Shown: positions 293 to 62,201, counted from the stretch's first letter. The stretch is 64,000 bases of DNA from an uncultured Alphaproteobacteria bacterium (GCA_902592345.1 CACJEE010000004.1:1957-65956); one strand, 5' to 3'. The notes: a model not told the origin generated them from the letters alone. Numbers and translations: made by a program.

Positions 293-1453
293 TTATTTAA
301 GAACTTTTAGTGCATTCAATATATCATTAATCTGATCTTGAGAGTCTTCTAATCCGCAGTAAACACGAATGAGATTTCCTTTTACTTCATTCTTAAATGA
401 TCTTTTACTAAGACGGGGGAAAGTAATTAAACTGTCAAATCCTCCCCAGCTATAACCTAGTTTAAATATTTTCAATTTATTATAAAATTTCTTAATAGAT
501 TTAAGAGAATGTTTTTTCTTTAAAGAGAATGCAAATAAGCCAGAGCTTCCTGTAAAATCTCTTTTCCAAATATTATGATTGGGAAAACTTGGAATAGCAG
601 GGTAATATACTTTATCAATAAGGGAATGTTCCAATAATTTATTAGCCATGTTTAAAGTATTTGTTTCAATTTGTTTCATTCTTAAATTTAGTGTAGGTAT
701 CCCTCTCAATGCTAAATATACCTCTTCTGAACCTGGACACATTCCTAATGTTTTGGCTGTAATTCTTATTTCTTTTGAATGTTTTTTATCAGTACTTACA
801 AATCCTATAAGAACATCAGAATGTCCATTTATATACTTTGTACCTGCATCAATAATAATATTTATCCCAAGTTTTATAGGATTGCAGAAAATAGGGGAAG
901 CCCAAGTATTATCCATGACAGTTGGTATTTTTTTCTTTTTTGCAATTTTTGTTATTTTAGGAATATCAAGTATCTCAAAAGTAGCAGTACCGGGAGATTC
1001 AAGATAAATTAATTTTGTTTTATTTGTAATTAATTTTTCAAATTTATTTATATCTTTTAAAGGGTGAAAATATTTAATTTTTACTCTGTAATTTTTAAGA
1101 ATTTTTTCACAAAATGTCCTAGTTGGACTGTAAACAGTATCATTAATTAATACTTCATCATCTTTTTTTAAATATGTTAAAAAAGGAATGATAAGTGCAG
1201 CCAGTCCAGAGGGAGCTATAATAGTATCATGGCATTTGTATAAACTTGAAATTGCTTTTTCTAATTGTTCAACTGAAGGATTTTTATTAATTCCATATAA
1301 AGTACTTCGGTCATCATCATTATTAATATCATTAATATAATCTTCAAAACTATTGAAGATCATTGTTGATCCTTTATAAATACCAGGATTAATAAAACCT
1401 TTTTGTTTTTTTACATCTCTTGAAACTTTTGTTAGTTTAGTATCTATTTTCAT
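293..1453 (-). CDS. metC: Cystathionine beta-lyase
   Basis: Cys/Met PLP family motifs PSGLAA, ESPGT, DNTWA, TKYINGHSD, GYSWGG; divergent from aapJ as in rhizobia. Confidence 0.85.
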   Translation of the reverse strand: MKIDTKLTKVSRDVKKQKGFINPGIYKGSTMIFNSFEDYINDINNDDDRSTLYGINKNPSVEQLEKAISSLYKCHDTIIAPSGLAALIIPFLTYLKKDDEVLINDTVYSPTRTFCEKILKNYRVKIKYFHPLKDINKFEKLITNKTKLIYLESPGTATFEILDIPKITKIAKKKKIPTVMDNTWASPIFCNPIKLGINIIIDAGTKYINGHSDVLIGFVSTDKKHSKEIRITAKTLGMCPGSEEVYLALRGIPTLNLRMKQIETNTLNMANKLLEHSLIDKVYYPAIPSFPNHNIWKRDFTGSSGLFAFSLKKKHSLKSIKKFYNKLKIFKLGYSWGGFDSLITFPRLSKRSFKNEVKGNLIRVYCGLEDSQDQINDILNALKVLK

Positions 1454-1611
1454 AAAACACTATATCTAGTATATATTTTGCAATTATGATACAATTTATG
1501 TTTATATCATTCTCTTAAAATTAGCTGTTTCTTAGATCAATTTATTTTGTTATTGGGGGGTAATCTTTGAAAAAAGATGTTTAAATAATTATTTAAAACA
1601 AAGGAAATAAT

Positions 1612-2616
1612 ATGAAAAAACTATTATCAATCTTTGCAGTTACTGTTTTTGCTTTTTCAGCAAATGCGGGAACTCTTGATGATGTTAAAAATAGAGGTTT
1701 TCTAAAATGTGGTGTAACAACTGGTTTAGCTGGTTTTGCTGCTCCTGACGATAGTGGAGAGTGGGCTGGTCTTGACGCAGATATGTGTCGTGCAGTTGCT
1801 GTAGCAGTTTTTGGAGACCGTTCAAAAGTAGAATTTATCACTACTACTGGTAAATCTCGTTTCCCTACATTAGCTTCTGGTGAGGTTGATATGTTAGCGA
1901 GAAATACAACTTGGACAATTAGCCGTGATGTTAATCTTGGCTTTGAGTTCGTAGGTGTTAACTTCTATGATGGACAAGGATTTATGATTCCTTCTTCACT
2001 AGGTGTATCAAGTGCAACTGAGTTAGATGGTGCTACTGTTTGTATTCAAACTGGTACTACTACTGAGTTAAACCTTGCTGACTTCTTTAGATTAAATGGA
2101 ATTAGCTACGAAGCTCTTCCAATTGAAACTAATGATGAAGGTAAAGAAAACTTATTCGCAGGAAGATGTGACGTATATACTACTGATGCATCAGGACTAT
2201 CTTCAACTAGAGCTGCAGCAGCAGATCCTGGTAAATGGTTAGTTCTACCTGAAATCATTTCAAAAGAACCTCTAGGACCACTAGTAAGACACGGTGATCA
2301 CCAATGGGGTGACGTAGTACGTTGGTCTTTAAATGCAATGATTATTGCTGAAGAGCTAGGCGTTTCTTCTGAAAACGTTGATGCTCAAAAAAGCTCAAAC
2401 GTTCCTGAAGTACTTAGACTTCTAGGTGTTGAAGGTTCATACGGTGAAATGCTTGAATTAGCTCCTGATTGGGCTTACCAAATTATTAAACAAATTGGTA
2501 ACTATTCAGAGTCTTACGAAGCTAACGTAGGTCCAGATACACCTCTTGAAATTGCAAGAGGACTTAACGCTCTTTGGACTCAAGGTGGTATTTTATACGC
2601 ACCTCCGTTCAGATAA
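1612..2616 (+). CDS. aapJ: General L-amino acid ABC transporter substrate-binding protein
   Basis: Signal peptide; LARNTTWTISRD, YDGQGF, SKEPLGP, C-terminal YAPPFR. Confidence 0.93.
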   Translation: MKKLLSIFAVTVFAFSANAGTLDDVKNRGFLKCGVTTGLAGFAAPDDSGEWAGLDADMCRAVAVAVFGDRSKVEFITTTGKSRFPTLASGEVDMLARNTTWTISRDVNLGFEFVGVNFYDGQGFMIPSSLGVSSATELDGATVCIQTGTTTELNLADFFRLNGISYEALPIETNDEGKENLFAGRCDVYTTDASGLSSTRAAAADPGKWLVLPEIISKEPLGPLVRHGDHQWGDVVRWSLNAMIIAEELGVSSENVDAQKSSNVPEVLRLLGVEGSYGEMLELAPDWAYQIIKQIGNYSESYEANVGPDTPLEIARGLNALWTQGGILYAPPFR

Positions 2617-2631
2617 ATCGTTAATTTTTTC

Positions 2632-2665
2632 AATTAGGGGGTTTTAAAACCCCCTAATTTTTTTT
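2632..2665 (+). terminator. Intercistronic hairpin with U-tract between aapJ and aapQ
   Basis: Perfect 28-bp palindrome AATTAGGGGGTTTT|AAAACCCCCTAATT (2632-2659) followed by T-run. Confidence 0.8.
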
Positions 2666-2676
2666 ATAGGAGTCTA

Positions 2677-3840
2677 ATGAGATCTAACTTAAATTTTTTT
2701 TCTGATGAAAAGTTTAGATCCATATTTTTTCAAACTTTAGTAATAGGACTTTTTGCACTTGGTATATATTTTATTGTCCAAACAACTGGTTATAATTTAG
2801 AAAAAAGAAATATTGCAACTGGTTGGCGATTTCTTTCAGATCCAGCAGGATTTGATATTAGTTTCTCTCCATTTATTAATTTTAAATCAACTGACACTCA
2901 CTTAGATGTATATTTTGTTGGTGTATTAAATACTTTATTAGTTTCTTTTTGTGGTTGTATTGCGGCAACTATTCTTGGTTTTCTAGTTGGAATTATTCGA
3001 CTTTCGTCAAATTGGTTACTTGTAAGAGTAGCTTACATTTATGTTGAATTTACTCGAAACGTTCCATTACTTTTACAAATTATTCTTTGGTATAGTATAT
3101 TAATTCAATTACCACGTGTAAAACAATCTCTAGAATTTTTAGATATTTTTTTTATTTCTAATAGAGGTATTTATTCTCCAAGACCTGTATTTGAAACTGG
3201 ATTTTCTTATGTTTTTATAGCTATTATTTTAGCTTTTATTTCAAGTTTTATAATAAGGAGATGGGCTAAAAAAAGACAGGATGAAACTGGTAAACAATTT
3301 CCTGTATTATCATCATCATTTGGCTTAATTATAATTTTACCACTTTTATTATTTTTTATAATAGGATCACCAATGTCATTTGACTACCCAGCTTTAAAAG
3401 GATTTAATTTTAAAGGAGGGATGGTAATAAGACCTGAATTCATTGCAATGTTTTTAGCTCTTACTATTTATACTGCAGCATTTATTTCAGAAACTGTAAG
3501 ATCTGGTATTTTATCAGTAACTAAAGGTCAAAGAGAAGCTTCAGCTTCATTAGGTTTAAAAAAAAGTTGGATTATGAGACTTATAATCATTCCGCAAGCT
3601 TTAAGAGTTATAGTACCACCATTAACAAGTCAGTATTTAAATTTAACAAAGAATTCTTCATTAGGTATTGCCGTAGGTTATGCTGATCTTGTCCACGGTT
3701 TTGGAGGAATTAGTTTAAACCAAACTGGTCAAGCAATTGAATGCATGGTTATAGTAATGGCAACGTATTTAACTATTAGTTTAACAATATCTGTTTTTAT
3801 GAATATTTATAACAGAAGTATACAATTTAAAGAGAAGTAA
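2677..3840 (+). CDS. aapQ: Amino acid ABC transporter permease
   Basis: YVEFTRNVPLLLQI, EAA-type loop GQREASASLGL, YLNLTKNSSL. Confidence 0.9.
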   Translation: MRSNLNFFSDEKFRSIFFQTLVIGLFALGIYFIVQTTGYNLEKRNIATGWRFLSDPAGFDISFSPFINFKSTDTHLDVYFVGVLNTLLVSFCGCIAATILGFLVGIIRLSSNWLLVRVAYIYVEFTRNVPLLLQIILWYSILIQLPRVKQSLEFLDIFFISNRGIYSPRPVFETGFSYVFIAIILAFISSFIIRRWAKKRQDETGKQFPVLSSSFGLIIILPLLLFFIIGSPMSFDYPALKGFNFKGGMVIRPEFIAMFLALTIYTAAFISETVRSGILSVTKGQREASASLGLKKSWIMRLIIIPQALRVIVPPLTSQYLNLTKNSSLGIAVGYADLVHGFGGISLNQTGQAIECMVIVMATYLTISLTISVFMNIYNRSIQFKEK

Positions 3841-3841
3841 A

Positions 3842-4975
3842 ATGAATGATATAACTGAATCAAGAAAACCTCCTGTTGCTACAACTGGTATTTTGGGTTG
3901 GTTAAGAATGAACCTTTTCTCAACCTGGGTAAATTCACTAATTTCTTTATTTGTTCTGTATATTTTATTTCAATTTATCCCTTGGATATTAAATTGGACA
4001 ATATTTGCAGCTGACTTCAAATATAATTTTAATGGTGAAGAGATCGTCAATAGAGAGATGTGTTCACGAGTTCTCGATCCTGAAAATGGGGGAGCTTGCT
4101 GGGCAATTATTTATGTTAGATTTTATCAGTTTATGTATGGTTTTTATCCAAGAGAGGAAGTGTGGAGAGTAAATCTTAGTTATTTAATGTTAGCAGTTGC
4201 TGTTGTCCCTCTGTTATTTGATAACTTTCCATTCAGAAAACATTTTTTAAAATTTACTTATATATTTCCAGTAATTGCTTTTTTTCTTTTAAATGGAGGT
4301 CTTGGACTTGAATCAGTTTCTACAAATAAATGGGGAGGTTTACTTGTTACTTTAGTTCTAGGTTGCACAGGTATTGCACTAGCTTTTCCTCTAGGTATTA
4401 TTTTAGCATTAGGTAGACGTTCCAATCTTCCAGTTATTAGCATGATGTGTACTTTATTTATTGAATTTATTAGGGGAGTACCACTAATTACACTTTTATT
4501 CTTTGGAATGGTTATGTTGCCATTATTTTTGCCTGAAGGTATTGATATGGATGGATTAGCTCGTGTTTTGGTTGCAGTAACTTTATTTCAGTCTGCATAT
4601 ATGGCTGAGGTTATTAGAGGTGGTTTGCAAGCAATTCCCCAAGGTCAATATGAGGCAGCGAGATCTATAGGGTTATCTTACTGGCAGATGAATTTAAAAG
4701 TTGTTTTACCTCAAGCAATTAGAATTTCAATCCCCTCTATTGTAAACACTTCAATAGGTTTATTCAAGGATACTACTTTGGTTATTATTGTAGGTTTATT
4801 AGATTTGCTTGGGATCGGAAGAGGGGCTTTAGCTGATACTACCTGGTTAGGTTTGGCCTATGAGGTTTATTTTTTTGTATCTTTAGTGTTCTTTATTTTC
4901 ACTTTTGCAATGTCTAGATACAGTTTATATTTGGAAAAAAAGCTTAAAACAGGTATTAACATGGGAGCAGATTAA
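3842..4975 (+). CDS. aapM: Amino acid ABC transporter permease
   Basis: [41 protein letters not shown]. Confidence 0.9.
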
Positions 4976-4976
4976 T

Positions 4977-5720
4977 ATGTCAGAAGATTCAATAATTTCA
5001 TTACAAAATGTAAATAAGTGGTTTGGAGATTTTCATGTACTTAAAGATGTGGATCTTGAAGTAAAAAAGAAAGAAAGAATTGTTGTTTGCGGACCTTCGG
5101 GTTCAGGTAAATCAACGATGATAAGATGCATTAATAGATTAGAAGAACACCAAGAAGGCACAATAATTGTTGATGGTATTGAACTTACAGGCAATTTAAA
5201 AAATATTGATAGTGTAAGAAAAGAAGTTGGAATGGTTTTTCAACAATTTAATCTTTTTCCACATTTATCTGTTAAAGAAAATATTACTCTTGCTCCAATC
5301 TGGGTAAAAAAAATGCCTAAAGCTGAAGCCGAAGAATTGGCAATGCAACAACTTGAAATTGTAAAGATACCTGAACAAGCTGATAAATACCCAGGGCAAC
5401 TATCTGGAGGTCAACAACAAAGAGTTGCCATAGCTAGATCTCTAGCAATGAAACCTAATATTATGCTTTTTGATGAACCTACATCCGCTCTTGATCCTGA
5501 AATGATTAAAGAAGTTTTAGATGTTATGATTGACTTAGCTGAAGGTGGAATGACTATGATAGTCGTAACTCATGAAATGGGTTTTGCTAAGACTGTAGCA
5601 GACAGAATGGTCTTTATGGACGAGGGGAGAATTGTTGAGCAAGCAGTACCAGATAAATTTTTTAATAATCCTGAAAGTGATAGAACTAAATTATTTTTAA
5701 GTCAAATTCTTAATCATTAA
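4977..5720 (+). CDS. aapP: Amino acid ABC transporter ATP-binding protein
   Basis: Walker [25 protein letters not shown]; start moved to ATG 4977 just after aapM stop. Confidence 0.93.
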
Positions 5721-8279: not shown

Positions 8280-8354
8280 TGGCTCCCCGGGCCGGGCTCG
8301 AACCAGCGACCGATCGGTTAACAGCCGATTGCTCTACCACTGAGCTACCGAGGA
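8280..8354 (-). tRNA. tRNA-Asn (GTT)
   Basis: Minus strand TCCTCGGTAGCTCAGTGGTAGAGCAATCGGCTGTTAACCGATCGGTCGCTGGTTCGAGCCCGGCCCGGGGAGCCA; cloverleaf with encoded CCA. Confidence 0.97.
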
Positions 8355-8402: not shown

Positions 8403-8476
8403 TGGAGGCTCGGAGCGGAATCGAACCGCTGTGCAAGGCTTTGCAGGCCCCTACATCACCACTCTGCCACCGAGCC
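8403..8476 (-). tRNA. tRNA-Cys (GCA)
   Basis: Minus strand GGCTCGGTGGCAGAGTGGTGATGTAGGGGCCTGCAAAGCCTTGCACAGCGGTTCGATTCCGCTCCGAGCCTCCA; U73 discriminator, CCA. Confidence 0.97.
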
Positions 8477-17495: not shown

Positions 17496-19227
17496 TCATA
17501 TCGATCTACTTTTTAATTATTTTAATAAATTTGCAGACACTTGTATCCAGAACAATTATCTTGATAATTTTAATAGGAAATCAATAAGTATAGATTTTTC
17601 ATCAAAGTCGAGACAGGGAGATATATCTTCCAATTTTTATCTAGTAACTATAAAAAAAATTTTAGACAAACAATTTAATTTAAAAGATGAGTTGCTCTCT
17701 GGAATTCATAATCTTGCTTTTATTGACAAGTGTGAAATTTCAAAAAATGGTTTTATAAATATAAATATTAAAAAAAAATTTTTAATAGAGCAAATTCAAT
17801 TTTTACTTAATGCACAAAATCAATTTGGTAAATCAAATGAAGGCAATGGTAAAAGGGTCAATGTTGAGTTTGTATCTGCCAATCCAACAGGCCCTGTTAC
17901 TGTGGCCCATATGCGTGGTGCAGTCTTGGGTGATGTTATATCCTCTTTACTTTCTAATACTGGACATCAAGTAACAAGAGAATACTATGTTAATAATGCG
18001 GGATCTCAAATAGATATATTGGGGAAATCTTTATTTAAAAGATATTTAGAGTTACACGGAGAAAAAGTGGAATTAAATAGTAATGAATATCCAGGTGAAT
18101 ATCTAATTGAAATTGCTAAATTAATTAAAAAAAAAGATGGAGATAAATGGTTAAATCATGACTCAATTGATAGAGAAGATTATTTTAAAGACTTTGCTGT
18201 CAAATATTTAATAGAATTTATTGAGAAGGATTTGATGTTATTAAATATCAAATTTGATAAGTTTTCTTTTGAAAAAGATATAGTTAATAGTAACATTATT
18301 AATGACTTATTTAATATATTAAATAAAAAAAACTTACTTTATAATGGCATTCTTGAAAAACCTAAAGGAGATGACTCTAAAGACTGGGAACCAAGAGAGC
18401 AATTACTTTTTAAATCATCTTCAATACTCGATGATCAAGACAGGGCGTTTAAAAAATCTAACGGAGAATGGACATATTTTGCTAATGATGCCGCATACCA
18501 CCTAGATAAATATAATAGAGAATTTAATAAGTTAATTAATATATGGGGCGCTGATCATGTTGGCTATATTCCACGAATGAAGTCTGTATTAAAAACAATT
18601 GCCAATAAAGACGATTATCTTGAAATAGTAACATGTCAAATAGTGAGACTTATCAAGAATAATAAAATATTAAAAATGTCGAAAAGAGAAGGAAATTTTA
18701 TCACTTTGCAGGAAGTTTTTAATCAAGTAGGAAAAGATCCTCTTAGATACTTTATGGTATCTACTAAAAGTGAAACTTCTATGGATTTTGATTTAAATAA
18801 AGTTATTGAAAAAAATAAAGATAACTCAGTTTTTTATTGTCAATATGCTTATGCAAGGGCATCTTCGGTTATTAACAAAGCGGAAGATTTAGGTATTGAT
18901 ATAAAATCATTTAATAATTTTGATGAAATTATTAAATATTTAACAAAAGATGAAATAGAAATAATATTAAAATTATTATCTTATCCATATATAGTAAAAT
19001 TAGCCTCTAACACAAGAGAACCTCATCGATTAACTAACTTTATTGAAGATATATCCGCATCTTTTCATTCATTCTGGAATAAAGGAAAGGAAAATGAATC
19101 CCTTCGTTTTATTGATGAAAATAACATAATAAAAACTCAAACAAAATTAATATGGATTCAATCCATGAGGTTGGTCTTTGAAAATATATTCAATATTATT
19201 GGTATTGATTATCACGAAACTATGTAA
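17488..19227 (+). CDS. argS: Arginine--tRNA ligase
   Basis: VEFVSANPTGP..AH.RG, WGADH, KMSKR, YCQYAYAR. Confidence 0.96.
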   Translation: MNNHIDLLFNYFNKFADTCIQNNYLDNFNRKSISIDFSSKSRQGDISSNFYLVTIKKILDKQFNLKDELLSGIHNLAFIDKCEISKNGFININIKKKFLIEQIQFLLNAQNQFGKSNEGNGKRVNVEFVSANPTGPVTVAHMRGAVLGDVISSLLSNTGHQVTREYYVNNAGSQIDILGKSLFKRYLELHGEKVELNSNEYPGEYLIEIAKLIKKKDGDKWLNHDSIDREDYFKDFAVKYLIEFIEKDLMLLNIKFDKFSFEKDIVNSNIINDLFNILNKKNLLYNGILEKPKGDDSKDWEPREQLLFKSSSILDDQDRAFKKSNGEWTYFANDAAYHLDKYNREFNKLINIWGADHVGYIPRMKSVLKTIANKDDYLEIVTCQIVRLIKNNKILKMSKREGNFITLQEVFNQVGKDPLRYFMVSTKSETSMDFDLNKVIEKNKDNSVFYCQYAYARASSVINKAEDLGIDIKSFNNFDEIIKYLTKDEIEIILKLLSYPYIVKLASNTREPHRLTNFIEDISASFHSFWNKGKENESLRFIDENNIIKTQTKLIWIQSMRLVFENIFNIIGIDYHETM

Positions 19228-26890: not shown

Positions 26891-27094
26891 ATGGCTACAG
26901 GTAAAATTAAATGGTTTAATCCAACCAAAGGATATGGATTTATTGAAAATGATGCAGGAGGAAAAGATGTATTTTTACATATTTCTGCTCTAGAAGAAGC
27001 TGGAATTGACCAGTTACAAGAAGGTGAAGCTGTTACATTTGAAATAGGTGAAAACAGAGGAAAAGAAAACGCTATTAACGTTAAAAAAGTATAA
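26891..27094 (+). CDS. cspA: Cold-shock protein (CspA family)
   Basis: KWFN..KGYGFI, DVFLHISA; SD AAGGAG. Confidence 0.93.
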   Translation: MATGKIKWFNPTKGYGFIENDAGGKDVFLHISALEEAGIDQLQEGEAVTFEIGENRGKENAINVKKV

Positions 27095-30383: not shown

Positions 30384-31334
30384 ATGATGTCACTAGATAA
30401 TAATATTAAAGCTATTTTTTTGATTATATTAGGCATGTTTGTTTTTTCAATTCAAGATACATTGATTAAATTAATGTCTGATCATATAAATATTTATGTA
30501 ATTTATATAGTAAGATCTATAGTTGGAATTTTAGTTATTTTTACTTATTGTTGGATCTATAAAATTCAACTAATTTTCAAAACTTATTATCCTTTTATTA
30601 CTATTTTGAGGGTATCCATATTTTTTCTTGGTTTTAGCTTGTATTATTTTTCTTTATCAAAAATTTCTTTACCTGAAGCAGTGACTTTATTTTTTATTAG
30701 CCCTTTTTTTGTAACTATAAGTTCAAAATTTATTATGGGTGAAAATATTGGCATGTATAGATGGAGTGCAATTTTAATCGGTTTTATTGGAGTGTACTTA
30801 GTTCTAGATCCAAATTTTAATGATTTTAATATTTATACTCTATTCCCAATCTTTTGTGCTTTTTTCTACGCAGTAACAGTTGTAATTCAGAAAAAAACAT
30901 CTGATAAAGACTCTCTATTTACACAAATATTACACACTTATTTATCAGCTATTGCTTTTTCAATTATAATTTATTTTTATGTAAATAATTTAACATTTAC
31001 TCCGTATCAATTGTTAGAATATAAATTTGTGCTTATGAGCTGGAATATTCCTAGTTTAAATTATTTTTTATTACTAATAATTATTGGTTTTACTGCAGTA
31101 ATTGGATTTTTTTCCATTTTTGGCGCCTATCGGATAGGATCACCTGCAACCATTGCTCCTTATGAATATAGTTTGATAATTTGGTCAATATTATTTGGTT
31201 ATTTAATATGGAATGATTATTTAACAATAAAAGGTATGGCAGGTCTTTCATTAATATTAATTGCTAGTTTTTTTACTTTATATAGAGAATATCATCTAAG
31301 TATTAAAGTTAGTACAGATAAACCAATAAGATAA
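30384..31334 (+). CDS. DMT/EamA family transporter
   Basis: About 10 TM; QDTLIK, LFFISP, GE.IG..RW.A..IGFIGV, APYEY. Confidence 0.87.
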   Translation: MMSLDNNIKAIFLIILGMFVFSIQDTLIKLMSDHINIYVIYIVRSIVGILVIFTYCWIYKIQLIFKTYYPFITILRVSIFFLGFSLYYFSLSKISLPEAVTLFFISPFFVTISSKFIMGENIGMYRWSAILIGFIGVYLVLDPNFNDFNIYTLFPIFCAFFYAVTVVIQKKTSDKDSLFTQILHTYLSAIAFSIIIYFYVNNLTFTPYQLLEYKFVLMSWNIPSLNYFLLLIIIGFTAVIGFFSIFGAYRIGSPATIAPYEYSLIIWSILFGYLIWNDYLTIKGMAGLSLILIASFFTLYREYHLSIKVSTDKPIR

Positions 31335-31393
31335 CTTTAAACAGCTTATCAACAAACATATGCACAGTAAAATTAATATTTTATCTTTTTTAT

Positions 31394-31422
31394 TTGATAA
31401 TCGATATTTCTAGAGTTAAATT
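31394..31422 (+). promoter_or_regulatory. Putative sigma70 promoter for the candidate ncRNA
   Basis: TTGATA(31394-31399)-N17-TAAATT(31417-31422); first hairpin starts 7 nt later. Confidence 0.55.
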
Positions 31423-31429
31423 ATAAATA

Positions 31430-31543
31430 CTTATTACACGCAAAGGTAGTAAGCAAATTAAATAAAGGAAACTTTATTTAGTTTGTATCGGGAGGAAATG
31501 CACGATACATGAAAAAGACCTAGCTTGCTGGGTCTTTTTTTTT
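31430..31543 (+). ncRNA. Candidate small RNA with four back-to-back stem-loops, family not recognised
   Basis: SL1 CTTATTAC/GTAGTAAG; SL2 14-bp stem with GAAA loop; SL3 TATCG/CGATA with loop GGAGGAAATGCA; SL4 terminator with G(CTTG)C loop and T9; G-U pairs favour the + strand. Confidence 0.7.
31512..31543 (+). terminator. Rho-independent terminator
   Basis: AAAAAGACCTAG-CTTG-CTGGGTCTTTTTTTTT. Confidence 0.88.
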
Positions 31544-31578
31544 GCCTAAAACTCACTATTTATTATAAGAGTTAATCA

Positions 31579-32160
31579 ATGGACTTTAAAAAATATAATA
31601 AAATTTTAGATATTTTTTTAAACGATCTTATACCAGAAACTAAAATCTCTGTTTCTAAAGGAAATAAAATATTTGGGGCCTTTGTATTAAATAAAATTGA
31701 TTTAAGTTTAGTCGTTACAGGTGTAAATAACGAAATAGAGAATCCAATATATCATGGAGAGATTTCTACTATAATAAATTTTTTTAAATTAAGAAATTTA
31801 AATCCAAAAGATTATTTATTTATTTCCTCTCATGAACCTTGCTCTTTATGTTTGTCTGCAATCACTTGGAGTGGTTTCGATAACTTCTATTATTTATTCC
31901 ATTATGAAGAAACTGAATCTAATTTTAATATTCCATATGATCTGAAAATTTTAAAAGAAGTCTTTAAGATTGATAAAGGTGCATATTCAAAAAATAACAC
32001 TTTCTGGCAAAGTTACTCAATTATAGAAGAAATTAAAAAACTACAAAATGCAGAAAACGATAAATTATTAGCAAAAATCAAAGAAATTAATAAACTTTAT
32101 GAGGATATATCAAATAATTATCAATCAGCAAAAAATTCAAACCATATTCCTCTAAAATAA
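31579..32160 (+). CDS. Nucleoside deaminase (cytidine/guanine deaminase superfamily)
   Basis: HGE and EPCSLC zinc motifs; GNKIFGA. Confidence 0.85.
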   Translation: MDFKKYNKILDIFLNDLIPETKISVSKGNKIFGAFVLNKIDLSLVVTGVNNEIENPIYHGEISTIINFFKLRNLNPKDYLFISSHEPCSLCLSAITWSGFDNFYYLFHYEETESNFNIPYDLKILKEVFKIDKGAYSKNNTFWQSYSIIEEIKKLQNAENDKLLAKIKEINKLYEDISNNYQSAKNSNHIPLK

Positions 32161-32193
32161 TTGAAAATATATAACAATAGTATAAATTATTAT

Positions 32194-32340
32194 TAACGGG
32201 AGATACTGTAATTTTACAGAGCCGAAGGAGCAACGACCCGGAAACTCTCAGGCAAAAAGGACCGTTAGAATAAAAAATCTGGAAAAGAGATTAATCTCTA
32301 CCGAAGGAGTAAAAACTCTCAGGTAAATATACAGAGAGGG
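32194..32340 (+). promoter_or_regulatory. Tandem glycine riboswitch
   Basis: Two aptamers, each GGARA...CCGAAGGAG...AACTCTCAGG; P1 TAACGG/CCGTTA and TCTG/CAGA; directly upstream of gcvT. Confidence 0.95.
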
Positions 32341-32356
32341 CTTAACAGGAGTCATT

Positions 32357-33469
32357 TTGACTGAAGAAGCTCTAAAAAATATTTATTTAAAAGATTTTCA
32401 TAAAAAAAATGATGCGAAGTTTGCTCCATTTGCTGGTTATGATATGCCAATTAATTACAAGAAAGGCATTATAAACGAGCACCTACATGTAAGAAATCAT
32501 ACTGGTATCTTTGATGTCTCTCATATGGGACAAATTCTTATTCCTTTTAATGAAGAAAATATTTTAGCTTTAGAAGCATACATACCTTTGAATATAAAAA
32601 AAATAATATCAAATAAATGTCACTATTCATTTATTTTAAATTCTAATGGAGGAATTGTTGATGATATTATGATTTCGAAAATTAAATTTGATAACAATGA
32701 ATTTGTATATATAGTTTATAATTCATCAAGAAAACAAATACTTAATAAAATCTTTAACGCAACTATTTCAAATTTTAAAATTTTTGAGGACAGATGTTTG
32801 ATTGCAATACAAGGACCTGAATCTTTTTCTTCTATTAATTCGATATTAAATCTACCTGCATCTATGAATTTTTTAAATATTCAAATTCTTCAATATGATG
32901 ATAACGATCTTTTTATTTCTAGATCTGGTTATACTGGTGAAGATGGTTTTGAGATATCGATATCAAATAATAAGGCAGAAAAATTAATTAGTGATATTCT
33001 TAATAATAATAATGTAATTTTATGCGGTCTAGGTTGTCGAGATTCATTAAGAGTAGAAGCTGGTCTAAGTTTGTATGGAAATGAAATAAACGAAGATATA
33101 AATCCTATACAAGCAGGTTTGTCATGGGCTTTAGATAAAAACAGATTGCAAGATCATAATTTAAATGGTTCTCAAATTTTATCAAAGGAATTAAGTTCAA
33201 TTCCATCAGTAAACAAAATAGGATTAAGTCCAATAAATAAAATCATGTTAAGAAATCAAATGACTATTCATAACAATAACAAAGAAGAAATTGGATTTAT
33301 TACGAGTGGATGTTACTCACCAATTTTAAAAAAATCCATTGGTATTGGCTATATAAATAAACTTTCAAATATTTCTGAAAAAAAATACGTTAATGTTCGT
33401 GATCAATATGAGGAAATTAAACTTGAGAAAATTCCATTTGTGAAAAAAAATTATAAAAAAGGAGATTAA
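32357..33469 (+). CDS. gcvT: Glycine cleavage system T protein (TTG start)
   Basis: FAGYDMP, FDVSHMGQ, RSGYTGEDGFEI, GLGCRDSLRVEAG. Confidence 0.95.
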   Translation: MTEEALKNIYLKDFHKKNDAKFAPFAGYDMPINYKKGIINEHLHVRNHTGIFDVSHMGQILIPFNEENILALEAYIPLNIKKIISNKCHYSFILNSNGGIVDDIMISKIKFDNNEFVYIVYNSSRKQILNKIFNATISNFKIFEDRCLIAIQGPESFSSINSILNLPASMNFLNIQILQYDDNDLFISRSGYTGEDGFEISISNNKAEKLISDILNNNNVILCGLGCRDSLRVEAGLSLYGNEINEDINPIQAGLSWALDKNRLQDHNLNGSQILSKELSSIPSVNKIGLSPINKIMLRNQMTIHNNNKEEIGFITSGCYSPILKKSIGIGYINKLSNISEKKYVNVRDQYEEIKLEKIPFVKKNYKKGD

Positions 33470-59788: not shown

Positions 59789-59802
59789 TTTGTTTTTTCC
59801 TC

Positions 59803-60951
59803 CTAAAGTTCAACATTAGTTTTTAGCCATTGTTTAGTATTTCCAGAATTAATTACTGCTTCACAAACTTTTTGTGTTTGTAATGCATTTCTAAAATCTG
59901 GTTGTGCTTTATTTTCACTGTCTACAGAAGCTAAGAAATCAGCCACTCCGTGAGTAAAAGAATGTTCAAATCCTATATTAAGTCCAGGCACCCACCATTT
60001 ATCCATATAGGGCTGATCTCCATCTGTTACGTGTATATCTCTCCAACCGCGCACAATAGATTCATCACTATGATCGAAATACTTTAAACGATGAAGATCA
60101 TGTAGATCCCATGCAATTGATGAATTTTCTCCATTAATTTCAAATGTATATAAAGCCTTATGGCCACGAGCATATCGTGTTGACTCAAATATTGCTAATG
60201 ATCCATTTTTAAATTTAGCAAGAAAGGCACATGCGTCATCAATTCCAACTTTTTGAACTTTTCCGGTAAGGCTATGCGTTCTTTCTTTTATAAATGTTTC
60301 AGTCATTGCGCTTACTTCAGTTATCGCACCATTTAACCACATAGCAGTATCAATACAATGTGCTAACAAATCTCCAGTTACACCACTTCCTGCAACATCT
60401 ACATCTAATCTCCATAAGCCTTCTCCACCTTGAGGTAAATCAGAAGAAATTGTCCAATCTTGAAGAAAATTAGCTCGATAATGAAATATTCTTCCTAACG
60501 ATCCTCTATCGATAATATTTTTTGCTAGAGTTACAGAAGGTATTCGCCTGTAGTTGTACCATACCATATTAGGTACGCCTGCTTTTTCAACAGCTGCAAC
60601 CATCTCTTCTCCTTCTGCAACATTAAGTGAAAGAGGTTTTTCTGTTAAAATCCACTTACCATTTTCCGCTGCTGCAATAGCAATGTCACGGTGCATATTA
60701 TTGGGAGCACAAATGTCTATTACATCTATTTCTTTACTCTCAACAACTTCTTTCCAGTCAGTAACAACTTTTTCATATCCCCAATTAGAGGCAAAACTTT
60801 TTGCACGTTCTTCATTTCGTGCACAAAACATTTTTAATTCAGGTTCATATGGAAGATCTGGAAAAAATTTTGCAGCTTGACGAAAAGCATTTGTATGAGC
60901 TTTTCCCATAAAGCCATAACCTATCATACCAACTCTTAATTTCTTTTTCAT
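59803..60951 (-). CDS. Gfo/Idh/MocA oxidoreductase
   Basis: [27 protein letters not shown]. Confidence 0.9.
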
Positions 60952-62108: not shown

Positions 62109-62201
62109 ATTTCCTCCAAGTTTAAATTAACTTGAAGTATAGGATTATTTGATTGAAATTAAAAACCAATAAAGTTTTTTTATATATTTTTTTTTGTAGA
62201 T

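Follow-up and report, generated by a model that had tools for sequence, protein, structure and literature searches.

The orphan ocean RNA IMES-4 is a stand-alone gene of one alphaproteobacterial family and possibly a mimic of ribosome binding sites

The question raised by this locus is what a run of four contiguous stem-loops is doing in the spacer between an EamA-type transporter gene and a cytidine-deaminase-fold gene, whether it represents a new kind of RNA, and what such an RNA might bind. The window, by which we mean the whole 64,000-nt stretch of DNA that was analysed, belongs to an alphaproteobacterial genome of 1.33 Mb that is 76% complete. On a crude map of open reading frames (ORFs) of at least 100 aa, the 244-nt spacer ranks seventh among the ORF-free gaps of the window, or fifth if both window ends are set aside, in keeping with an earlier account made from the sequence (hereafter the preliminary description), which had placed it among the longest non-coding spacers. 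The longest window stretch free of such ORFs lies elsewhere and contains one GGAGGAAA, at 26957-26964 (Table 1).

The RNA family turns out to be already known. A scan of the window with Rfam 15 returned four matches above curated thresholds, one of which is a match to RF02037 (IMES-4) at 103 bits against a cut-off of 48 (E = 3e-16), running over model positions 1-80 of 80. All three loops of the model, CACGCAAAGG, GGAAAC and CGGGAGGAAAUGCACG, are reproduced in the window copy letter for letter. A permissive scan of 31300-31620 added only seven matches of 17-22 bits against cut-offs of 42-111, and the IMES-4 model matched 0 of 14 control genomes. The preliminary description had presented the RNA as unannotated and novel; that claim falls because of the full-length RF02037 match, an outcome it had itself named as contrary, and the element as filed is no new kind of thing. 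It is, as we can say with near certainty, the IMES-4 gene at 31430-31543 (+): a small RNA of about 114 nt with three hairpins and its own terminator, driven by its own sigma-70-type promoter, present as a single copy per genome, and inherited vertically at a fixed locus within one family of HIMB59/AEGEAN-169-type alphaproteobacteria. The fourth hairpin and the U9 run lie outside the RF02037 model.

Of the orphan RNAs of the surface ocean, IMES-4 is one of the abundant ones. Weinberg et al., in Nature in 2009, reportedly described the motif on the basis of marine metagenomes, and Shi et al., in Nature in the same year, are said to have found it as an abundant RNA of metatranscriptomes; to our knowledge, it had no cultivated host in these 2009 descriptions. 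Our literature search on IMES-4 and on IMES-1/2/3 yielded no relevant paper, the 2009 Nature papers being outside its reach.

Table 1. Positions of the features discussed, in window coordinates except where a contig is named.
Feature	Position	Strand	Description
tRNA gene (RF00005)	8283-8354	-	65.3 bits
tRNA gene (RF00005)	8406-8476	-	55.7 bits
Longest stretch without ORF of at least 100 aa	26745-27554		810 nt
EamA-type transporter gene	30384-31334		5' flank of spacer; Pfam
Intergenic spacer	31335-31578		244 nt; contains IMES-4 (+)
Upstream box TTATCAACAAACATATGCACA	31346-31366	+	about 65-85 nt 5' of RNA start; TTAT(C/T)AACAAACATAT at same distance in both main clades
Promoter	31394-31422	+	-35 TTGATA, N17, -10 TAAATT; 9/12 consensus positions; ends 7 nt before SL1
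RF02037 (IMES-4) match	31430-31509	+	Rfam 15 scan
IMES-4 hairpin 1 (SL1)	31430-31437 with 31446-31453	+	8 bp, loop ACGCAAAG; Rfam alignment
IMES-4 hairpin 2 (SL2)	31455-31467 with 31472-31484	+	13 bp, GAAA tetraloop; Rfam alignment and fold
IMES-4 hairpin 3 (SL3)	31485-31490 with 31503-31508	+	6 bp, 12-nt loop GGAGGAAAUGCA; Rfam alignment
Motif GGGAGGAAA of hairpin 3	31490-31498	+	from loop and closing G
Intrinsic terminator (SL4)	31512-31523 with 31528-31539	+	stem AAAAAGACCUAG / CUGGGUCUUUUU, loop CUUG; fold
T run of terminator	31535-31543	+	9 T (U9)
Cytidine-deaminase-fold gene	31579-32160		3' flank of spacer; Pfam
Glycine riboswitch aptamer (RF00504)	32187-32274	+	64 bits; precedes gcvT, gcvH, gcvP
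gcvT	32357-33469
GGAGGAAA before sugar-catabolic gene	59796-59803	-	directly 5' of likely start codon
GGAGGAAA before sugar-catabolic gene	62110-62117	-	directly 5' of likely start codon
CCUCCC-loop RNA	contig C10 of the window's genome (G000), 18962-19064	+	outside window; hairpin and terminator
Intergenic UUUCCUCCC	contig C10, 19008-19016		between minus-strand ETF-QO and acyltransferase genes
CCUCCC-loop RNA, form of window's clade			hairpin GAUUUAAUAUU[UUUCCUCCCAAUU]... (loop bracketed)
CCUCCC-loop RNA, form of main clade			hairpin CAUC[AUUCCUCCCA(A/U)UU]GAUG (loop bracketed)
CCUCCC-loop RNA, form of genus g4			hairpin GAUUUA[AUUUUCCUCCCAAAAAA]UAAAUC (loop bracketed)

As regards the structure, all four stem-loops first proposed are present, with the corrections that SL2 has 13 rather than 14 bp and that SL3 is one base longer on each side. 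By hand count, the four helices comprise 39 pairs, of which 36 are Watson-Crick and 3 are G-U, with no mismatch, so that every non-Watson-Crick position is indeed a G-U pair, as had been stated. The + strand folds at -40.3 kcal/mol compared with -20.1 +/- 3.3 for shuffled sequences (z = -6.2, a value that 0 of 200 shuffles equal), and the - strand at -28.9 kcal/mol (z = -3.8). Comparative evidence comes from 107 copies at 101 loci (some genomes being represented twice), which reduce to 54 distinct sequences of 119 nt. Among these, the four-helix structure is paired in 95.2% of cells against 88.4% after shuffling (0 of 500 shuffles as high), both sides change in 23 of 39 pairs against 10.2 in shuffles and 3-9 for slid partners, and covariation scores 0.248, compared with 0.05-0.09 when the partners are slid. 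Both-side changes are found in 4 of the 8 pairs of hairpin 1 (98.8% of cells paired), 11 of 13 in hairpin 2, 2 of 6 in hairpin 3 (100% of cells paired) and 6 of 12 in the terminator stem, whereas loops 1-3 are invariant across all 54 sequences. The covariation that the preliminary description had proposed to look for is therefore there.

The promoter claimed for this RNA has to be judged by conservation, since sites of its kind are no rarer than chance in the window (12 against 9.0 +/- 2.5 expected from shuffles). Among 72 distinct upstream sequences, a T-rich stretch, TTGAT(A/T)-N17-TA..TT and a distance of 7 nt to hairpin 1 are kept across clades, and it is this that supports the site as first proposed. 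Further upstream, at about 75 nt from the RNA start, the box TTATCAACAAACATATGCACA recurs among the same 72 otherwise diverged sequences and also precedes the second tandem copy found in some genomes, and by its conservation might be a regulator site. A simple terminator scan found no site in 31000-32400; the terminator of IMES-4 rests on the fold, the hand count and the covariation, and one stands behind every IMES-4 copy examined.

Transcripts of the region are found in marine RNA libraries, in which 19 RNA rows from 14 studies matched part of 31300-31700, each covering a small share of the 401-nt query. Four runs (X1, X3, X4 and X5) were mapped to 31200-31800 as assembled contigs, which attest presence and give a weak hint of ends, carry no information on strand or level, and whose uncovered parts are not to be read as absence. 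X4 contributed 28 contigs with depth confined to bins 31410-31556 (from 31431 on the word depth is 435-5360; it is 0 elsewhere in 31200-31800); they cover 31431-31542, and those listed end at or before 31542. X5 covers 31429-31521, X3 holds a 459-nt contig of a relative that spans the IMES-4 gene neighbourhood including its flanks, and X1, an oligo-dT library, holds one contig of depth 3.9 that reaches from 31464 to 31733 and crosses the terminator into the deaminase gene. RNA of the gene is thus present in marine samples, and X4 and X5 cover nothing else.

Where this gene occurs was assessed in a sample of 151 genomes of the order. The window's genome has one IMES-4 copy; without it, IMES-4 is found in 62 of 79 genomes of the same family (f1), across all 8 genera, and in 0 of 71 genomes of the sister family (f2). 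Among the genomes that are at least 90% complete, 11 of 22 have IMES-4, and all 11 belong to f1. Species representatives scanned for the exact motif yielded 74 IMES-4 contigs, including uncultured Alphaproteobacteria single-cell genomes, Pelagibacterales, Pelagibacteraceae AG-337-I02, MarineAlpha5 and HIMB59-LRMED-199, the last being the nearest titled relative of the window, with neighbouring proteins 97-99% identical. The HIMB59 order consists of two families according to sections of one genome paper (PMC10734472), and the terms 'sRNA' and 'small RNA' do not occur in the main text, as far as available, of two papers on HIMB59/AEGEAN-169 genomes (PMC10308909, PMC10734472).

The usual order at the locus is a PALP enzyme gene, anmK (-), [EamA], IMES-4, [deaminase], a glycine riboswitch, gcvT and gcvH. 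This arrangement bears on the first rival explanation, namely that IMES-4 is a cis-acting leader, a riboswitch or attenuator for the deaminase and glycine-cleavage genes. The RNA is co-oriented with the deaminase gene and gcvTH at loci of genera g1, g3-g6 and g8, 35 nt separate the end of its terminator from the start of the deaminase gene, and the X1 contig bridges that terminator. On the other hand, a conserved promoter serves IMES-4 itself, reading the sequence brought up no alternative anti-terminator pairing, gcvT has its own glycine riboswitch, and Rfam types RF02037 as 'Gene'. The exceptions at the locus likewise argue against a role in cis. In two genomes (G004 and G029), two tandem copies lie 218 nt apart, each with a terminator, and the deaminase gene is absent; in three species (L069, L076 and L099), about 800 nt are inserted ahead of the deaminase gene; and in genera g7 and g9, IMES-4 is found away from the usual locus, in g7 between an alcohol-dehydrogenase gene and umuDC. 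A leader function is thus highly improbable. IMES-4 is a real, selected, stand-alone gene, and the preliminary description had been right to favour a stand-alone + strand RNA over a deaminase leader, given the promoter, the terminator and the tandem loci that have no deaminase gene.

Two side observations on these loci may be recorded. At the tandem loci (L020/L026 of G029 and L025/L027 of G004), and also at L094 and L031, the stems of the upstream copy are variant, and so is its terminator loop, CCUAGCAAUAGG. In three genomes of the sister family (G037, G038 and G040), the closest counterparts of the window's GcvT are paralogue-like proteins of only about 25% identity; besides IMES-4, f2 may also be without this glycine-cleavage locus.

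The most conserved feature is the loop motif singled out in the preliminary description, GGGAGGAAA (= G-GGAGGAAA): together with the GAAA tetraloop, it is kept in 54 of 54 sequences and in 11 of 11 divergent copies from other genera (51-93 bits). In these divergent copies, loop 1 varies (UUGCAAAA, UCUUCAAAAG), as does the 3' part of loop 3 (GGAGGAAACAAC, GGGAGGAAAUGUCU, GGAGGAAAUGCU). The AUG of loop 3 is lost in genera g7 and g9, and because it is not kept, loop 3 is no start site. A mini-ORF, AUG-CAC-GAU-ACA-UGA, was rejected, with four codons here, other lengths in relatives and the same loss of the AUG.

The motif recurs at ribosome binding sites (RBSs). Against an expectation of 1.85, the window holds 6 GGAGGAAA sites, two of which directly precede the likely starts of two sugar-catabolic genes, as had been noticed at the outset. 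On either strand of the whole genome, the 9-mer GGGAGGAAA/UUUCCUCCC has nine sites: IMES-4 itself, one RBS (TTGGGAGGAAAAATG, of a Peripla_BP_4 sugar-binding-protein gene whose leader lies around 123431-123444 of contig C1 of G000), six sites inside ORFs, all six with GGGAGGAAA as the sense strand, and one intergenic site. The 8-mer of loop 1 has seven sites in the genome. The anti-Shine-Dalgarno (anti-SD) sequence of 16S rRNA was considered as a partner of loop 3 and set aside: the 16S 3' end CACCUCCUUUCU pairs only with GGAGG plus one G-U and accounts for that part of the motif, not for the conserved AAA.

Our best guess, held tentatively, is that IMES-4 is a decoy that mimics an RBS. It would act in trans through its invariant loops, with hairpin 3 exposing GGGAGGAAA, which equals the Shine-Dalgarno-plus-A-tract of the genome's sugar-binding-protein gene; the form that precedes the two sugar-catabolic genes, GGAGGAAA, is one base shorter. 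Having no usable start codon in loop 3, IMES-4 would be an abundant mimic that rivals genuine RBSs for their ligand. For this ligand, the only candidate found is the CCUCCC-loop RNA described below, and an RBS-binding protein or the 30S subunit would be no less likely.

A different reading of the same loops gives IMES-4 a dedicated protein, for which it would serve either as the RNA component of a housekeeping-type ribonucleoprotein or as a sponge, a CsrB-like titrator, and takes its likeness to a Shine-Dalgarno sequence as incidental. Invariant loops over freely covarying stems would fit such a partner, as would the very high word depth in an RNA library next to flanks with none, the single-copy, family-wide occurrence, and the GGA-type motifs that, on inspection of the sequence, occupy or adjoin each of the three loops. 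The obvious proteins were, however, not found: Hfq (PF17209), CsrA (PF02599), ProQ and RRM_1 each gave 0 matches among 61 genomes, a set that includes 10 of at least 90% completeness, whereas control genomes were positive for each of them (5 of 14 for Hfq, 3 of 14 for CsrA). The hfq gene that the preliminary description had proposed to search for was therefore not found in this set. Nor is any protein gene consistently linked to IMES-4, synteny with anmK, EamA, deaminase and gcvT being lost in g7 and g9, and a universal housekeeping RNA is at odds with the absence of IMES-4 from all 71 sister-family genomes. On balance, we consider a dedicated protein partner somewhat unlikely.

To return to the RBS-mimic decoy, its candidate ligand emerged from the search of the genome for a small RNA bearing UUUCCUCCC, another step proposed in the preliminary description and one that bore fruit: the one intergenic site lies in the loop of a conserved hairpin-plus-terminator RNA. 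Read along the + strand, this locus consists of a palindrome ATATGCAATATTTGCATAT (ATGCA-N5/6-TGCAT), TATACT, a hairpin with the 13-nt loop UUUCCUCCCAAUU, and a terminator GGAGCC...GGCUCC-U8, and the loop displays UUCCUCCC(A), i.e. UU(U)CCUCCCA. The region has no Rfam match. RF00519 (suhB), which we take to be the Rfam family of the alphaR8 small RNAs, has 0 matches in the window's genome, at 76% completeness. The CCUCCC-loop RNA is thus an uncatalogued small RNA, conserved in the genus. Of 104 genus genomes, 81 gave a match to a covariance model of it (R1), as did the window's own; a second model (R2) found it in 61 of 69 genus genomes and in the single genome of genus g4, and the homologues keep the core UUCCUCCCA. 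These models overturned the view that the RNA was restricted to a clade, which had rested on an 18-mer present in 15 of 105 genus genomes and on the 9-mer UUUCCUCCC, which led to no such RNA in G112, G129 and G133. Its hairpin takes a different form in each of the groups compared (Table 1), and in G061 a likely orthologue carries CCCUCU instead.

Outside these groups, model R2 found the CCUCCC-loop RNA in 0 of 9 genomes of g3 and g5-g9, all but one of which have IMES-4, and gave 11 weak matches among the 71 sister-family genomes, of which the 5 examined are terminators without the hairpin. The 39 motif sites in G112, G129, G131, G133 and G168 are ORF-internal or RBS-like, and none resembles the CCUCCC-loop RNA. 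In G112, the CCUCCC-loop RNA is flanked by the genes of RNase HII and of a CcrM-like methylase, and further loci of this RNA are L102/L103/L197. In other genus members (L111-L122), the same palindrome-plus-TATACT promoter precedes a protein gene whose product starts MINVFNFFNKVYEDL...; the shared architecture of these promoters suggests a common regulator and a small regulon.

How well do the two RNAs fit each other? Between IMES-4 and the CCUCCC-loop RNA, the predicted pairing amounts to 9 nt for the window's clade, to 8 nt for the main clade, and extends on neither side; it shows no covariation, both sides being invariant. The conserved CCCAAUU tail of the CCUCCC-loop RNA is unmatched in IMES-4. 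A pairing of loop 1 with the terminator loop or the 5' part of the CCUCCC-loop RNA was also tried and rejected, with only 4 bp found by eye. In order to rank possible targets, 40-nt windows of the genome (5839 in all) were ordered by their duplex energy with the 17-nt loop of the CCUCCC-loop RNA. Its own antisense aside, the top predicted site is the RBS of the Peripla_BP_4 sugar-binding-protein gene (-22.0 kcal/mol, 14 contiguous pairs), other RBS-like AAUUGGGAGGA sites rank next, and IMES-4 comes 64th of 5839 with a predicted -16.3 kcal/mol. Among the 15 exact-loop genomes, only 3 have a second site for the 14-mer of the CCUCCC-loop RNA, and a BLAST comparison of the sugar-binding-protein leader with 5 relatives gave weak AT-rich matches only. 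Because RBS sites outrank IMES-4 in these energies, the CCUCCC-loop RNA has the look of a common anti-SD repressor acting on a small number of strong RBSs, for which IMES-4 would be one of many possible contacts, and one that could matter if IMES-4 is abundant. As a candidate partner, it keeps the idea of a sponge alive short of demonstrating it.

The apparent presence of a classical anti-SD small RNA in these genomes makes chaperone-free RNA regulation plausible, and this favours a further rival, in which IMES-4 is itself a base-pairing regulator that uses loops 1 (ACGCAAAG) and 3 as seeds on mRNAs and alters their translation or decay. Its build, with a promoter, exposed conserved loops and a terminator, is typical of such RNAs. 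An SD-like loop would nonetheless need CCUCC-type sites in its targets, and UUUCCUCCC reads in the sense direction in 0 of the 6 ORF sites of the genome; moreover, 9-12 nt that stay invariant over 8 genera, in which neighbouring proteins are 45-60% identical, exceed what is usual for mRNA seeds. We regard this regulator as somewhat unlikely.

In its most specific version, the RBS-mimic decoy would make IMES-4 and the CCUCCC-loop RNA an Hfq-independent counterpart of the CrfA/SisA-D circuit, in which the CCUCCC-loop RNA blocks sugar-uptake RBSs and IMES-4 soaks it up via GGGAGGAAA; this is decidedly improbable as matters stand. If it were true, the sponge pairing would set the amount of a sugar transporter in streamlined ocean bacteria, and an RNA that has been an orphan since 2009 would gain a function, in a lineage credited with very little regulation. 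What this study adds is that IMES-4 is tied to one family, that it has nine untouchable nucleotides, that the usual small-RNA proteins were not found in the genomes searched, and that a complementary, conserved RNA exists with a plausible sugar-transporter target. The lead is testable with synthetic RNAs.

Comparison with known systems helps to place the gene. Against riboswitches and attenuators, IMES-4 stands as its own promoter-to-terminator unit, and in several lineages the gene downstream of it is missing, displaced or another one. With the CsrB/RsmZ sponges it shares its abundance and the GGA-containing hairpin loops that resemble RBSs, but CsrA was found in none of the 61 genomes and, in place of many repeats, IMES-4 has a single clear SD-like loop. 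IMES-1 (RF02034), a sister RNA among those 'identified in marine environmental sequences', differs from it in structure and family. The closest parallel is the CrfA circuit. According to passages of PMC12559287, alphaR8 small RNAs combine a terminator with the single-stranded 10-mer UUUCCUCCCU, and in Caulobacter CrfA sponges them (SisA-D) via a G/A-rich stem-loop in an Hfq-dependent manner, which confirms both the motif and the sponging that the preliminary description had cited. The loop motif of IMES-4 complements 9 of the 10 nt of UUUCCUCCCU as given in those passages. The circuits differ in that no sequence relation between them was found (RF00519 being without matches here and the partner RNA without an Rfam family), and in that Hfq, needed there, was found in none of the 61 genomes, while the pairing here is 8-9 nt and predicted only. 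They are alike in that IMES-4, too, has a hairpin with a G/A-rich loop able to complement the UUUCCUCCC core, in that the CCUCCC-loop RNA, like the alphaR8 RNAs, consists of a weak hairpin, a single-stranded core (UUUCCUCCCA) and a terminator, and in a link to sugar and carbon, the best predicted target of the CCUCCC-loop RNA being a sugar-binding-protein RBS. Finally, compared with RF02037 itself, the window copy has the same three hairpins, loop sequences and length, with no difference in the core; to that model we add a terminator outside it, a promoter, a host family and a fixed locus.
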